From IMG/VR virus record IMGVR_UViG_3300035208_006730: a stretch of DNA of 64,000 nucleotides. One strand, written 5' to 3'. Of this stretch, positions 1 through 40,129 are shown piece by piece. The notes under the pieces were generated by a model. The model did no database searches and was not told where the DNA came from. It saw nothing but the letters and a program-made list of their open reading frames with translations. Each line of letters opens with the position of its first letter. Within the stretch, counting starts at the first letter, position 1. A program made the translations under genes and the position numbers. The stretch comes from a virus (Duplodnaviria; Caudoviricetes).

Positions 1-1528
1 CATTAATGGAAAGCCATTAATGCCTTGTTCAATCACAAAAGCAAGACATTTATTGCAAGGAGGAAGAGCTAATGTAGTTAAAAGATTCCCATTTACAATT
101 AAATTGAATTTTGAATGTGAAAATAAAGTACAAGAAGTTAATTTAGGCATTGATAGTGGTGCAAAGTTTATAGGTTTTTCAGCTACTTCTGAAAAGAAAG
201 AGTTAATGTCAGGAACTTTAGTGTTAGATTTAAAAACAAAAGATCGATTAGATGAAAAAAGAATGTATCGTAGGAAACGTAGAAATAAATTAAGATATAG
301 AAAACCAAGATTTAATAATAGAAAAAGAAAGACTGATTGGTTAGCACCTTCTATAGAAAGAAGATACCAAACTCATTTGACTTTGATAGAAAAAATTAAA
401 AATTTACTACCTATTAAAAATGTTATAGTTGAGGTAGCAAAATTTGATATACAAAAAATAATGAATCCTGAAATTAGTGGTGTTGAATATCAGCAAGGTA
501 ATCTTTATGAATATCAAAATATAGTTAGTTATCTTCAAGTAAGACAGGATAATATTTGCGCTTATTGCAAGAAAGAATTTAAAGGTGAATCAAAAGCTAC
601 ACATCATATTTACAGGCATGGTGATAATCGTAGAACAAATAGATCTGAAGGTTTAATTTTATTACATAAGAAATGTCACATTGATTTGCATGAGAAACAT
701 AGAGAAAAAGAATTTCAAAAACCTGTTAAAAGATATGAGCAATCAACATTTATGTCAATAATACATAAGAGATTTTTTAAAGATATATCTGATTTACATG
801 TAACTTATGGTTATATTACACAGGTGAAACGTAATAATTGTAATATAGAGAAAACTCATTATAATGATGCATTTATAATATCTGGTGGTAGTAATCAAAT
901 AAGAAGCAAACCTATAACTATAGAACAAAAGCATAGAAACAATAGAGTTTTACAGTTAAATAGGAAAGGTTTTAAACCATCAATTAAAAGAGAAAGAAGT
1001 AAAATATTGCCGAAAGATTTGTTTTGGTCAAATAATATTAAATATACTTGCAAAGGGATGTTTAATAAAGGTAAATATGTTTTATTTGGTGACTCTAAAA
1101 AGAAAGAATATATTAAGTTTACATTGATAGATAATATTTACAATTTTGGAAGTTTTGTATGGAATATCTAACTAAAAATCATTCAAAATATTTATTGCAA
1201 TATCATATTATATTTGTGGTAAAGTATAGATTAAAAATTATTGATCAATTTCCAATTAAAGATATATGTAGTCAATTATCTATTAATGATAATTATATCA
1301 TTAAAGTAATGGAAGTTGATAAGGATCATATACATTTATTAGTTCAAGCTGAACCAAAAATAAGTCCATTATATATTGTTAAAAAACTTAAAGGAAAATC
1401 TACGATAATATTATGGAAAAATTATTCTCAAATATTGACAAGATATTTTTGGAAAGAACATACTTTTTGGTCTGATGGTTATTTTGTATCTACTATCGGC
1501 AATGTTTCAGAGCAGACATTACAGAAAT
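1..1528 (+). mobile_element. IS200/IS605-superfamily IscB+TnpA element (5' end and omegaRNA lie upstream of the window; 3' end apparently truncated at ATAAA 1529-1533)
   Basis: iscB overlaps a downstream Y1 transposase gene; the stretch is visibly more AT-rich than its neighbours; nt 1-127 are identical to 3476-3602 of the omegaRNA-bearing copy. Confidence 0.85.
20..1171 (+). CDS. iscB: IscB RNA-guided endonuclease (PLMP/RRXRR, RuvC + HNH); true start probably just upstream of the window
   Basis: NGKPLMPC motif; RuvC-I LGIDSGAKFIG; Arg-rich helix RMYRRKRRNKLRYRKPRFNNR; RuvC-II VIVEVAKFD; HNH-like CAYC..THHI..HKKCHIDLH; RuvC-III HYNDAF. Confidence 0.93.
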   Translation: MPCSITKARHLLQGGRANVVKRFPFTIKLNFECENKVQEVNLGIDSGAKFIGFSATSEKKELMSGTLVLDLKTKDRLDEKRMYRRKRRNKLRYRKPRFNNRKRKTDWLAPSIERRYQTHLTLIEKIKNLLPIKNVIVEVAKFDIQKIMNPEISGVEYQQGNLYEYQNIVSYLQVRQDNICAYCKKEFKGESKATHHIYRHGDNRRTNRSEGLILLHKKCHIDLHEKHREKEFQKPVKRYEQSTFMSIIHKRFFKDISDLHVTYGYITQVKRNNCNIEKTHYNDAFIISGGSNQIRSKPITIEQKHRNNRVLQLNRKGFKPSIKRERSKILPKDLFWSNNIKYTCKGMFNKGKYVLFGDSKKKEYIKFTLIDNIYNFGSFVWNI

Positions 1529-1605
1529 ATAAAATTGGCCGTGTCTCAATTAAAAATATTATAACGAATAAACAATGGATTGATAAAAATTCTGAACATC
1601 ATTGA
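1159..1605 (+). CDS. tnpA: IS200-type Y1 (HUH) transposase TnpA; C-terminus probably replaced by flanking phage sequence
   Basis: YHIIFVVKYR, DKDHIHLL (HUH), LKGKS, FWSDGYFVSTIG; the expected catalytic KYIxxQ reads KYKIGR. Confidence 0.9.
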   Translation: MEYLTKNHSKYLLQYHIIFVVKYRLKIIDQFPIKDICSQLSINDNYIIKVMEVDKDHIHLLVQAEPKISPLYIVKKLKGKSTIILWKNYSQILTRYFWKEHTFWSDGYFVSTIGNVSEQTLQKYKIGRVSIKNIITNKQWIDKNSEHH

Positions 1606-2611: not shown

Positions 2612-3197
2612 GCATTGGTATTTTATTACAATGATTATATGTCCAATATGTGGTAGAGAGAAAGTGCACAAAGAACGACGATACGATAAAATGCCTAAGG
2701 ATTGGAATCAAAGACACAAAGAAGAACATTATGACTACTGTGATGAATAATGAGGATTAAACTTATAGCAGAAGTTCTAAAAGACGAAAAACTTACTAGA
2801 ATTTGTCCCATTTTTAGTGGGAAAGAACTTGAAATAACAGATCAAACATGGGACATGATTTGGTGTAAGATGGGAGAACAATTAAAGAAAGCAGTTTTTC
2901 CTTTAATTAATGAAGATAAGGCGATTAGAAAATGAGATACGAATACTTCATAGCTCCTTGGTATGATAGAGATGAGGCGTTAGAAGATCTTGGAGAGTAT
3001 GGAAATAGTTATTATCGTCATTTTAGAATCCGCGATTTTAAAACCCAAGAAGAATTCCCAGGAGTATTTGAAGAAGAACAGGTAAGAAAGATTGTGGAAG
3101 TTCTAAATGAACAATGGAAATACATTATTAGTGCAAGATCAAATGTCTACTACGAGGAGGAATAATGAAAAAGTTTAAGGTTATAGCTAGAAATGGA

Positions 3198-3460
3198 GTC
3201 AATCACCCCTGAATAAATTCAGGGGCTTGAGTTGTGAAACTTAAGGGTAACAGGTTGATTAGGGGGCTTAAGGAGAAATCTTTTATGCAAACGTTACAAA
3301 GAGAGTTTAAGAACGTACCTACGGATGCTTCACTAGTCTGTAGCTCTACAAGTTGTGAGTTAAACAGAGAGGAAACTCTCAGTGCTCATAGCAAAGTACT
3401 GATTTGTAACAATCCCGAAGTGAATCAACATCAACTACAAACTGGTGGACTTAAAGTCAA
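3198..3460 (+). ncRNA. omegaRNA/HEARO scaffold (3' boundary approximate); guide predicted to be the sequence immediately 5' of 3198
   Basis: GTCAA start, perfect hairpin CCCCTGAAT-AA-ATTCAGGGG (3206-3225), CTTGAGTT-GTGA-AACTTAAG, CTACGGATGCTTCACTAGTCTGTAG, GAGAG-GAAA-CTCTC; directly upstream of the PLMP coding sequence. Confidence 0.85.
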
Positions 3461-3597
3461 GGTGTTTGTATTAAACATTAATGGAAAGCCATTAATGCCT
3501 TGTTCAATCACAAAAGCAAGACATTTATTGCAAGGAGGAAGAGCTAATGTAGTTAAAAGATTCCCATTTACAATTAAATTGAATTTTGAATGTGAAA
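3198..3597 (+). mobile_element. non-autonomous truncated copy of the IscB element (omegaRNA + first ~45 codons of iscB)
   Basis: begins with the GTCAATCACCCC end motif; 3476-3602 identical to 1-127; ends at ATAAA. Confidence 0.85.
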
Positions 3598-4013
3598 ATA
3601 AATAATCGTGACCGTATTGTTTTTGGACTTACATCTAGGACCCTAGCGGAGGAAACTGCTGTTGTTTTTGCCACAGCTCCAGATATGTTTCGAGACATAA
3701 AAATTGAACCATACATAGATTATGAAGAGGAAGAAGACGACAATGACTAGAGAAATGATAATTTCTAGGAGGAAGAATGAAAACAATCAAAATCTCAGCT
3801 GAATGGAATGGACTCGAATTAGATCTAGCTCTAGCTCTTGACCCTTGGGAAATAGTTGTCTCAGAAGAATTCAAAGATGAAATGACAAAAATTCGCGCCA
3901 ATCTCCAAAATTTCAAAGGCCGATTGTCTACAGATCCAGAAGTTGAACAATTTATCACTAATAGCGTAAATACTCTTCGTATTAATGGTCATCTAACTCC
4001 CAAGAGAAAGTGA

Positions 4014-6023: not shown

Positions 6024-6248
6024 ATGCGAATGTTTATAGCTCGAGCAGGAAAACCAGATATGTTTGGTAAGATTTGGGAAGAAGAAGTTCTTCGAAAACT
6101 TGCTGAATACAAGAAAGAAACTGCAGAGCTAGTTGAAGATCCAAATGGACTAATGCTTTTTTTCGTGTTGCAGGATAGCTCAGTGGGACAGCACCAGTCT
6201 CATAAACTGGAAGTCGACGGTTCAAATCCGTCTCCTGCAACCAAATGA
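6024..6248 (+). CDS. hypothetical protein whose 3' third overlaps tRNA-Met
   Basis: AGGAG RBS before ATG 6024; frame stays open through the tRNA. Confidence 0.5.
   Translation: MRMFIARAGKPDMFGKIWEEEVLRKLAEYKKETAELVEDPNGLMLFFVLQDSSVGQHQSHKLEVDGSNPSPATK
6169..6243 (+). tRNA. tRNA with CAT anticodon (Met; Ile2 not excluded)
   Basis: acceptor TGCAGGA/TCCTGCA, anticodon arm CCAGT-CTCATAA-ACTGG, GGTTCAAATCC T arm, encoded CCA; slightly atypical D arm. Confidence 0.88.
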
Positions 6249-6651: not shown

Positions 6652-7534
6652 GAAGAAGAAACGTGGTGGCGGGGGTTGCGGTTGAGACTTGTGATCGATA
6701 GCGAAGATCTAGATCCAGCTAAAACAAAAATAACTATTGATGGAAAAGATATTTGCTGGGTTCATCAGATCTATTTTACGGCTTTGGCTGAAAAGAAATT
6801 AATCAACGTAAAGATTCAAATCAACAATCACGTTCGAAGCATTAATCCAGCAGGACTCAATGAAACTTTGGATCTAATGAAAAAGGCTGGATTTGATATT
6901 GAGTTTGTGGAGGTAAAGTGAAAGACGATATTTTTGAAAAAGCTCATCAAGATATGCTCCTGAATATTCCTGAGGGATACTCTGAAAAACAAGTCAAAAT
7001 AGTAGTTCCAGATCTGTTGATAAAGATTGCAGAAATGACTATTGGAAAATTTGGCGGTGGTGATTCAGAAAAAGTTCTTTCAATGCTCATCTCTGGAATG
7101 GTCCGTCAACGATATGAAAGCTACTATTCAGAGATCCTTCCTCAAATTCAAAAAGTAAAAGATCCAGATCTAGTCAATAATCTTCTGAATCCTCCTGAAG
7201 ATGCTTTGAAAAAAATCAATGATCAGGTTAAAGGAATTCAAGAAATTATGAATAGTTTTAAGGGATTAACCTCTCAAATGGGAGGAATTGCAGACATACA
7301 AAAACAGATGGAGACGTTAAATGCTGGAAAGATTTCAGGGGGTTCTAAGTAGACTCGCCGATTCAGAAAATCCTTGTATTCGCCTTCTATTTTCAGATTG
7401 GATTAGAATTTTTACAGCAATAAAAGATATCGTAATGGATCTTTCGTGGTTCATTGGACTAATTATAGCTCGAGTCATTGGACAAGATTCTTATTCGGCG
7501 GCGATTTTGCATCAATTCAGGGAAGGATTGAATC

Positions 7535-7795
7535 ATGGCTCTCTACTTTATTAAGTACAAATGTCCTCGTTGTGGAAGAGAAGAATTACGGAAAATAGGA
7601 ACTACCAAGTACTATTGTCCAGTAGATGTAATTTTTCATTGTCCAGAATGCAACGCCTATTTACATATGAAATACAAATGGAATAAAGGTGTTTGTCCTG
7701 AAGAAGATACAACAACTTTATTTTCAGTTGAAGAATATCTTCGAGGAGAATCAACTGACAGATTCTCTGATTATTCTCTCGAAGATTGGAAATAG
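7535..7795 (+). CDS. zinc-ribbon protein
   Basis: CPRC...CPEC. Confidence 0.55.
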   Translation: MALYFIKYKCPRCGREELRKIGTTKYYCPVDVIFHCPECNAYLHMKYKWNKGVCPEEDTTTLFSVEEYLRGESTDRFSDYSLEDWK

Positions 7796-27804: not shown

Positions 27805-27883
27805 GGATTGGTAGCTCAGCTAGGTTAGAGCTCCTGATTTGTAATCAGGGGGTTCGTGAGTTCGATTCTCACCCAATCCTCCA
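27805..27883 (+). tRNA. tRNA-Thr(TGT)
   Basis: GGATTGG/CCAATCC acceptor, CCTGA-TTTGTAA-TCAGG anticodon arm, GTTCGATT, CCA. Confidence 0.88.
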
Positions 27884-27983
27884 CGAGTCGTTTTGAAAAA
27901 AGATGTATTAGAGAAGAACGATGGGATGATCTTCATGCAAGGACTTATCAAGAGATAGAAGATGTTTGGAGCTATGATTGATC

Positions 27984-28068
27984 GGAAGGGTATGTTAATT
28001 GGTAAACAGCCAGTCTTGAAAACTGGTGGGCATTAGCCTTGGGGGTTCGAGTCCCTCCCCTTCCGCCA
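27984..28068 (+). tRNA. tRNA-Ser(TGA)
   Basis: GGAAGGG/CCCTTCC acceptor, CCAGT-CTTGAAA-ACTGG, long variable arm, G discriminator, CCA. Confidence 0.92.
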
Positions 28069-28074
28069 TTTTTC

Positions 28075-28150
28075 GGGTCCATCGGTTAATTGGCTAAACC
28101 AACGCTCTCCAAAAGCGTGACTGCAAGTCCGAATCTTGCTGGACCCGCCA
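28075..28150 (+). tRNA. tRNA-Trp(CCA)
   Basis: GGGTCCA/TGGACCC acceptor, ACGCT-CTCCAAA-AGCGT, variant T loop TCCGAAT, CCA. Confidence 0.88.
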
Positions 28151-38276: not shown

Positions 38277-38575
38277 AGAATGTATTTTCTAAAAAAAAAT
38301 TAGTAAATTATGTGGAGGTACAAGAAGTACTTGATCAAAAAGAAAAAGTCTTTTATCATTATTTATATAAAGATGTAGAAGCGGCTAAATTAAAAAAAGA
38401 AGATGCAGAGGTGATTGAGACAAAAAATAATGCTGATTCAGATCATCTTCGACCTAATAAAGAACCATTTCATGTTTTCCTCGGTATAGATTTAGAAGGG
38501 ATGGTGGGACTTGAGATTCAAGCGAAGCGTGCTATTCCTTCCATTTCAAATGTGATTGAGACTTTGGAAAACTGA
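38273..38575 (+). CDS. hypothetical protein coupled to the LamG gene
   Basis: ATGA overlap with the upstream gene. Confidence 0.55.
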   Translation: MKNVFSKKKLVNYVEVQEVLDQKEKVFYHYLYKDVEAAKLKKEDAEVIETKNNADSDHLRPNKEPFHVFLGIDLEGMVGLEIQAKRAIPSISNVIETLEN

Positions 38576-39271
38576 CCCAAGAAGTAACATTGAGCTTTGG
38601 CGGAAGCTAAGATCAGATTGGGAGGCGCGCTGCAATACACAGTCCGAATGGAATGTTTCAATCAAGCCGACATTAATTTAATCCGTGCAGGTATCACAGA
38701 TGAAGAAGCCCAATGGGTTACTTTCACACACACATTTATAGAAGAAGAAAACATGCAAGAAATTAGGAAAAGACGAATATACACTGCTATATTTTTCCGC
38801 ATCACGAAACGCATTGTACCTCTATATGCGCAGACTATAGAGGATGCATGTAAAGAAGCAGATGATTTGCATCATAATGCAAAAATTTACGCAGGAGCAA
38901 TAGAATTTGCCCACAAAGAGAAAGGTCAATGGATAATAAATCAATGACAACTATAACTGAAGTTACAAATGGAATGCTAGCTATATTATCAAATAGACAA
39001 AATATAACGCTAAATAAACATATTAACGAACTTGAAGCAATGCTAGAACAACGGAATAAAGAAATAGAAGAGCTTTGGCAGTTAACTCATAAAGTTCAAA
39101 AAGAAAATCATTACGAAGAGATGAATAGGCTCAAAGATGAAAACATGGATCATCTTCTTGGATTAGGATCCAAACTTGGTTGTGCTCCTAATTGGCAAGT
39201 AATTTTTGAAGAAGTTCAACAACTTATAGATCGTTCTTTACTTCCCTACAATTTTCGATAAAGGAGATCAA

Positions 39272-40129
39272 ATGAAGTGTTTCTATCATTCAGCAGATTT
39301 TGACGGTAAATGTTCTGCGGCTCTTGTAAAACTAGTCTTTCCTCATGTCGAACTATTCCCAATTGATTACAATGAATCTTTTCCCTGGGATAAAATTCAA
39401 AATATTGAAGAAGGAATAGTTCAAGAACAAGTTTTCATGGTTGACTTTTCTTTGAAGCGGCCAGAAATGGAACGGCTGAATAACGAAACAGATTTAACTT
39501 GGATTGATCATCACGTTTCAGCAATAGAAGAGATGAAAGATCTTGACATCAAAGGAAAAAGAGATACTACAAGAGCTGCTTGTGAATTAGTTTCATTGTA
39601 TCTCCTAGGAAAGATTTTTTCAGCTGTTCAGCTTCTTGGAAGTTACGATGTGTGGCGCGATAAAGATCCTAATTGGAAATCTGGAATTCTCCCATTTCAG
39701 ATGGGATTGAGACTCTGGCAAACTGACCCAAGAAGTGATCTTGAGCTTTGGCGAAGGTTATGTCTTGAGGATGACGTAATCTTTATTGAGGAGATTATTC
39801 TTGCTGGAAAAAACATCTTACAATACCAAAACGATCAAAATAGAATCTATGCTCGAGTCTGTGCATTCGAAGTGAAATTTGAAGGTCTTCGAGGTATTGC
39901 AATTAATCGAGCTCTTTCTTCCTCTCAAATCTTTGATTCAGTTTGGGATCCAGAAAAATATGATTTAATGATTGCTTTTTCTCGCCTAAAAGATGGAAAA
40001 TGGAAGTACAGTCTGTACACAACTAAGGATGAAGTGGACTGTAGTGTGCTTGCAAAGAAATATGGTGGTGGCGGACATGTGAAAGCCGCCGGATTTAATC
40101 TCGATTATCTTTTCGAATCAATGGAGTGA
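39272..40129 (+). CDS. DHH/DHHA1 phosphoesterase (nanoRNase-like)
   Basis: YHSADFDG, MVDFS, WIDHH, YSLY, GGGGHVKAAGF. Confidence 0.93.
   Translation: MKCFYHSADFDGKCSAALVKLVFPHVELFPIDYNESFPWDKIQNIEEGIVQEQVFMVDFSLKRPEMERLNNETDLTWIDHHVSAIEEMKDLDIKGKRDTTRAACELVSLYLLGKIFSAVQLLGSYDVWRDKDPNWKSGILPFQMGLRLWQTDPRSDLELWRRLCLEDDVIFIEEIILAGKNILQYQNDQNRIYARVCAFEVKFEGLRGIAINRALSSSQIFDSVWDPEKYDLMIAFSRLKDGKWKYSLYTTKDEVDCSVLAKKYGGGGHVKAAGFNLDYLFESME

Follow-up and report, generated by a model that had tools for sequence, protein, structure and literature searches.

A 400-bp insertion in a large, uncultured landfill phage of ~185 kb is a 3'-truncated copy of an IscB element of the IS200/IS605 family, a structural identity of which we are nearly certain. 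It retains the omegaRNA scaffold in full, along with the opening codons of iscB, lies inside a small gene at the family's target motif, ATAAA, and is absent, with the gene whole, from otherwise near-identical phages. In the window, by which we mean the whole 64,000-nucleotide stretch of viral DNA analyzed here, the iscB gene of a second, longer copy of the element is found ~2 kb upstream of the insertion. Judging from sequence comparisons, we see about an even chance that the solo omegaRNA acts as a second guide for this neighbouring IscB, directed against phages that are free of the insert.

A solo omegaRNA joined to an iscB stub

The original prediction had described the insert as carrying a structured leader, and had read the insert as a stand-alone omegaRNA. 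The covariance-model search bore this out: Rfam HEARO (RF02033) matched the plus strand with 121.2 bits, compared to a gathering threshold of 83 (E 1.6e-24), and the match spans model positions 1-211 of 211, which is to say the whole model, with the scaffold complete (Table 1). HEARO RNA is what is now called IscB omegaRNA. The 5' end of this omegaRNA occurs once within the window. The consensus fold computed with RNAalifold from 22 related loci comprises 56 base pairs, 27 of which display compensatory double changes, and the solo omegaRNA of the window is compatible with it. Directly downstream of the omegaRNA, and in the orientation found at an iscB start, are the PLMP codons. The predicted ~45 codons of iscB proved to be 47, their translation matching Pfam RRXRR over profile positions 2-46 (E 4e-13; N-terminal PLMP part). 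The stub frame, which is open from within the omegaRNA, terminates at the TAA at 3603-3605, right at the junction; a full-length iscB with RuvC and HNH domains is not part of the unit.

Table 1. Features of the insertion, of the gene that it interrupts and of the neighbouring iscB-tnpA copy (window coordinates).
Feature	Position	Strand	Basis
Full-length iscB (type B), 5' end cut by window/contig start	1..1171	+	Pfam, IscB structures, P0123
tnpA (Y1 transposase), IS-derived part	1159..1531	+	Pfam Y1_Tnp E 2e-29, profile positions 2-117/121
GIY-YIG homing-endonuclease tail fused in frame to truncated tnpA	1532..1605	+	Identical to 3' end of the gene in L003-L005
First 11 codons of interrupted 61-aa gene	3165..3197	+	Intact in L003, L004, L005
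Predicted guide, last 16-20 nt of 5' gene fragment	~3178-3197	+	5'-flank rule
400-bp insert: right-end terminus, omegaRNA and iscB stub	3198..3597	+	Absent from L003-L005
omegaRNA scaffold (Rfam HEARO), complete	3198..3429	+	Covariance match, covarying fold
iscB stub, 47 codons, PLMP/N-terminal part only	3462..3602	+	Pfam RRXRR; repeat; ORF list
ATAAA, insertion-site target/TAM motif and truncation-point microhomology	3598..3602	+	Empty site; L019, L023, L047
Last 50 codons of interrupted 61-aa gene	3598..3750	+	100% identical to L003 3347-3500

In most homologues, as at 3234-3605 of the window and 601-1965 of L001, the iscB frame is open for ~60 codons more on its 5' side, across the 3' half of the omegaRNA. 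This extension begins at a conserved ATG, and gene callers give proteins of ~450 aa in most relatives. The open upstream frame may be a case of dual coding, or may merely be a structured region free of stop codons.

The stub had been noticed to repeat the start of the window, and positions 3476-3602 are indeed 100% identical to positions 1-127, this being the sole long direct repeat in the window. Its length of exactly 127 nt is explained by the fact that the window, whose first base is also base 1 of a JGI contig of 185,777 nt, begins there, and the identity between stub and iscB most likely extends upstream of this point. The protein P0123 (408 aa) equals the window IscB with 25 more N-terminal residues, and those 25 residues equal the translation of the stub; P0121 (383 aa), which begins at the window's first ATG, is 100% identical to P0123; both are gene calls on the 185,777-nt contig and belong to the protein cluster of the window IscB. 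Apparently, then, the stub equals the parent copy over the whole 405 nt formed by the insert and the adjoining ATAAA. Elsewhere in the window are a 72-nt direct repeat of 85% identity (38538-38609 and 39689-39760, 1,151 nt apart) and four tRNA genes (6169-6240 and 27805-28147), three of the four being clustered.

Devoid of nuclease domains, of tnpA and of the left-end hairpin, the 400-bp unit is therefore unable to transpose or to be excised, and it is neither a complete IS200/IS605 IscB element nor a PATE. Of the stand-alone omegaRNA insertion that had been proposed, the omegaRNA and its empty site thus hold, and the notion of a purpose-built insertion gives way to that of a truncated, immobile IS remnant lacking the left-end hairpin.

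The empty site in related phages

Exact-protein look-ups of neighbouring genes led to contigs of this phage in other samples. Three of them, L003 (ENA) and L004 and L005 (both from Logan), carry an intact 61-aa gene starting MKKFKVIARNG/INNRDRIV... (the slash marks the point of insertion), which is the very frame that deletion of the unit had been predicted to restore. All three contigs join window position 3197 straight to 3598, with a one-base ambiguity concerning an A, and the insert is therefore exactly 400 bp long within that ambiguity, as originally delimited. Upstream, over ~1.7 kb, the flanks in these contigs match the window with 99.94% identity; downstream, over up to 1.2 kb, they do so with 100%. 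The empty site reads ...GGA/ATAAAT..., and ATAAA makes up the first bases past the insert, also as anticipated. For the 3' fragment of the interrupted gene, gene callers propose a 52-aa product with a GTG start inside the stub, called in L002 at 131-289.

The intact 61-aa gene was found on seven contigs and the interrupted allele, a minority among the sampled contigs, on three; no drive is therefore evident. The left-flank pattern was absent from IMG/VR, the deposited phages held no near match, and a genome search for the omegaRNA 5' end yielded only five distant MAG matches.

Target motif and truncation of the element

Past tnpA, intact relatives (L019/L029, L023 and L047) have five more tnpA codons, an 8-bp hairpin and a T-rich end, followed by ATAAA and then by sequence unrelated between them. 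The presence of ATAAA 3' of the left-end hairpin in these three relatives with unrelated flanks identifies it as the target/TAM motif of the subfamily. ATAAA is the reported TAM of KraIscB-1 (PMC11610941), and TnpA and IscB recognize one common motif (Meers et al. 2023 preprint). The original prediction that ATAAA serves as TAM to a guide drawn from the 5' flank is consistent with all of these observations. The insertion of the unit adjoins this motif, and the left-end hairpin and terminal sequence of L019, L023 and L047 have no match in the window at <=3 mismatches.

The break itself lies inside AATAAA, a sequence common to iscB codons 45-47 and to the empty site, five of whose six bases are the TAM; given this base composition, ~0.7% of junctions would by chance be expected to show a microhomology of at least 5 nt. 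On the left, the edge of the insert coincides with the terminus of the element, from which it follows that an insertion made by the transposase preceded the truncation. In the scenario that we propose, TnpA would have put the element at the ATAAA site and the right part would have been lost later via the 5-6 nt of AATAAA microhomology. The loss may have proceeded by microhomology-mediated deletion from a full-length insertion, or by aborted copy-repair of a cut empty site, with annealing at the TAM. A full-length element at the site of the stub was present on no contig among the fetched loci.

The neighbouring iscB-tnpA copy

The window IscB matches Pfam RRXRR with an E-value of 1e-62 and the HNH profile with 20.9 bits, just below the cut-off of 21.4; solved IscB structures (PDB chains) match it with E-values of 2e-42 to 2e-34 (e.g. 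7xht, E 2e-34). Seven close relatives show no variation at the candidate residues of the RuvC and HNH motifs, and the nuclease looks intact as far as its sequence allows one to judge. Aligned with the intact copies of L019, L023 and L047, the adjoining tnpA still has its C-terminal, presumably catalytic Tyr and lacks the last five codons and the left-end hairpin. The open reading frame to which it belongs (1159-1605) is chimeric: from 1532 onward, it consists of the 3'-terminal 24 codons of a GIY-YIG homing-endonuclease gene (139 aa), which matches PHROGs homing-endonuclease families (E 2e-13) and which, in the IS-free relatives L003-L005, is whole and located downstream of an RNA ligase gene. 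At the tnpA/GIY-YIG junction, ATATA is common with the uninterrupted gene (10 of 11 bases, one indel), and the arrangement looks like the product of a microhomology deletion that took the left end together with phage DNA up to this junction. We considered a TAM-linked event at the right end of this large copy and rejected it: the ATATA microhomology suffices, and the left flank is not the homing-endonuclease gene. Since both copies in the window are without a left end, both are fixed in place.

At the same locus, L001 and L042 have another upstream flank, an omegaRNA that is 92% identical, and an iscB whose first 1,000 nt are 76-95% identical to those of the window; from ~1,000 nt of iscB onward, the identity is 100% (window 1-1000 was compared with L001 793-1790). 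Such a mosaic suggests recombination between IS copies. The adjacent IscB of the sister strain L001 is of a different type (type A as opposed to type B), with 85% protein identity and the 92% identical omegaRNA; compatibility of the scaffold with the L001 IscB is assumed.

Other copies of the element

The pattern of the omegaRNA 5' end was found at 4 viral, 49 metagenome and 5 genome loci, and in ~50 loci the divergence of the flanks sets in precisely at base 1 of the omegaRNA. In landfill metagenomes, a 100% identical stretch made of the first 45-123 nt of the omegaRNA adjoins five or more additional, unrelated flanks (L012, L013, L021, L022 and L035/L033), and the element is, on the evidence of these junctions, multi-copy and recently active in the landfill community. 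The contigs with these other flanks stop within the omegaRNA; at least one (L035/L033) leads into a full-length element. No HExxH motif was present in the flanks of L012, L013, L021, L022 and L035, and therefore none of them could be tied to the large copy of the window.

A viral contig, L010, harbours a second, independent stub at 7312-7748, made of an omegaRNA and ~57 iscB codons, which breaks at ...GATA/ATG and which up to this break is ~98% identical to the full-length element of L049. On the same contig, 5 kb from this stub, an iscB at 905-2307 is split into ORFs of 315 and 138 aa. Other truncated copies of the family break at unrelated points without ATAAA, e.g. after ~87 nt in L040, indicating that plain decay occurs. 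IscB homologues are encoded in 33 of 50,697 deposited phage records.

A possible second guide in trans

IscB omegaRNAs take their guide from the sequence flanking the element end on its 5' side, and the guide needs transcription from outside (Meers et al. 2023 preprint). Here, a dense plus-strand operon is oriented the same way as the unit, and read-through transcripts would therefore carry the guide fused to the scaffold; no terminator-like site was found between the upstream genes and the insert. Within the window, the 19-nt guide sequence occurs at this site only. Protospacer and ATAAA are intact in the wild relatives L003-L005, and in the phage itself the protospacer runs straight into the scaffold; the scaffold of the neighbouring copy is the same as far as it is visible. 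In a read-through RNA, the last 16-20 nt of the 5' gene fragment joined to the scaffold would form a ready omegaRNA, and the IscB encoded upstream could load it as a second guide. The resulting complex would be predicted to spare the phage's own allele, in which the protospacer is followed by the scaffold, and to cut the uninterrupted allele of related phages, in which it is followed by ATAAA, in mixed infections. If repaired from the genome bearing the insert, the cut allele would acquire the stub together with nearby markers, i.e. homing would result; without repair, the rival genome would be lost. That transposons may home between co-infecting phages is an idea already published under the term 'transposon non-restorative homing' (review PMC13565253).

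The same facts may have another explanation, which we regard as quite possible, if somewhat less than probable: the unit may be a decaying IS copy whose right part was lost by ordinary deletion and whose omegaRNA, even if transcribed, is without consequence, the sole effect being the disruption of a dispensable small gene. Everything required for mobility is missing from the unit, the neighbouring large copy is likewise damaged at its right end, related contigs hold truncated omegaRNA copies of many lengths (L040, L009, L031, L010), and the intact allele outnumbers the interrupted one. Moreover, the 100% identity of the stub to its parent over the 127 comparable nt implies that it is recent and gives no sign of selection for function, as expected of a young, unselected remnant. 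Against an inert remnant, the truncation leaves a full scaffold in the correct orientation, an intact IscB with the same scaffold is encoded 2 kb away, and a perfect target with its TAM circulates in near-identical phages. Given full scaffold, intact IscB and circulating target, cleavage would be the default outcome if the nuclease is active. A regulatory role, in which the 47-residue PLMP peptide or the extra omegaRNA copies modulate IscB as a decoy or dominant-negative, would fit with a stub ORF that encodes the N-terminal domain alone and with the retention of a similar omegaRNA and N-terminal stub by the second phage contig, L010. We hold it to be very unlikely, however: we found no precedent for it, no ribosome-binding site could be detected for the peptide itself, and the stubs here and in L010 break at different codons, which suggests accident over design.

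Two further explanations concern the nature of the unit rather than its use, and both were rejected. A mobile non-autonomous mini-element resembling PATEs, with two functional ends served by TnpA in trans, would account for insertion at the family's ATAAA motif and for the occurrence, in landfill metagenomes, of the 100% identical omegaRNA 5' end next to six or more different flanks; on the opposite strand, ~14-16 nt from the cut point, there is even a weak 4-bp AT hairpin with the spacing of the true left end. The hairpin and terminal sequence of the left end of intact copies are missing, however, the right-end junction motif of the stub was seen at one site only among all fetched loci, and the contigs with other flanks break off within the omegaRNA or, for L035/L033, continue into a full-length element; with the left end absent and no second site, this explanation is scarcely credible. 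There is next to no likelihood, finally, that the stub is a chimeric join made by an assembler through the repeat. What invites the suspicion is that the repeat measures exactly 127 nt, a common assembler word length, and sits at contig base 1, and that contigs of other assemblies break at the edges of the unit: L001 ends 141 nt into the 405-nt unit and L002 begins 141 nt before its end, 141 being the word length of the assembler behind both. Breaks of this kind are, however, what a genuine two-copy repeat yields, and breaks at both edges are to be expected of an exact two-copy repeat that spans the whole 405-nt unit. The left junction is independently present in L001 (ENA, k141) and L006 (JGI), the right junction in L002 (ENA, 159 kb), and the product of the interrupted allele is found on three contigs; as both junctions are thus crossed by assemblies from independent samples and assemblers, the structure is not an assembly chimera.

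If the solo omegaRNA does provide the neighbouring IscB with a second guide, one may speculate further that the phage has tamed two immobilized IscB remnants into an RNA-guided weapon against its siblings, with one nuclease and two or more guides read from flanks. We consider this extension doubtful. Were it true, the system would resemble a primitive two-spacer array, cutting the insert-free alleles of co-infecting relatives and carrying stub, nuclease locus and adjacent genes into them; an RNA-guided system would be displacing the protein-guided GIY-YIG homing endonuclease of rivals at the same locus; and the stub would spread as a guide-only homing element, with neither a transposase nor a nuclease of its own.

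Comparison with known systems

A homing role has been ascribed to the RNA-guided nucleases of IS200/IS605 elements. To our knowledge, direct natural evidence of their targets outside one bacterial chromosome is scarce. The present locus brings together, in near-identical wild phages, a nuclease, a guide that can be read from the flank, a TAM, and both the occupied and the empty allele; a few cloned fragments would thus suffice for a direct test of RNA-guided homing or exclusion between phages. It shows a guide outliving its transposon, which is relevant to how guide and nuclease may become detached from mobility on the way toward CRISPR-type systems. Should the remnant be inert, it would simply offer a dated picture of how an IS decays in a phage. 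Stand-alone omegaRNAs with no adjacent nuclease gene were reportedly described by Altae-Tran and colleagues in 2021.

As in the IscB-omegaRNA elements of the IS200/IS605 family (KraIscB-1, OgeuIscB, GstIscB), a HEARO-type omegaRNA is located at the end adjoining the guide-giving flank, the TAM 3' of the target is the target motif of the transposase (ATAAA both here and in KraIscB-1), and, in the neighbouring copy, an IscB with PLMP, RuvC and HNH parts accompanies a Y1 TnpA. Unlike these elements, the unit described here consists of an omegaRNA and 47 codons only, and its carrier is a large phage of lytic type. Both phage copies are, moreover, without a left end and neither is excisable, so that the role of the nuclease in restoring the donor site cannot apply. 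With PATEs (Meers et al. 2023 preprint), the unit shares the condition of a guide-RNA locus that is without its own nuclease and relies on an IscB elsewhere in the genome. PATEs, however, have both transposon ends and are mobile, whereas here the left end is missing and a coding stub is kept; PATEs arose by loss of ORFs between intact ends, the unit by truncation.

The proposed behaviour is also that of the free-standing homing endonucleases of phages (T4 seg/mob), in that the insert-free allele of a co-infecting phage is predicted to be cut and repair to copy the insert with flanking markers; the difference is that recognition would here depend on an RNA guide and TAM rather than on a protein. 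A passenger element without its own nuclease likewise has a counterpart in the trans-homing of a defunct homing endonuclease, the dead I-TevIII that is moved by mobE (PMC2790892). In the phage studied here, most of a GIY-YIG homing-endonuclease gene, still present in IS-free relatives, has given way to the IS. IscB, omegaRNA, TAM, guide loci used in trans and homing are all known, as parts and in their logic; what is new is their setting in a large uncultured phage, the architecture of two copies that both lack the left end, and the occurrence of occupied and empty alleles in nature.
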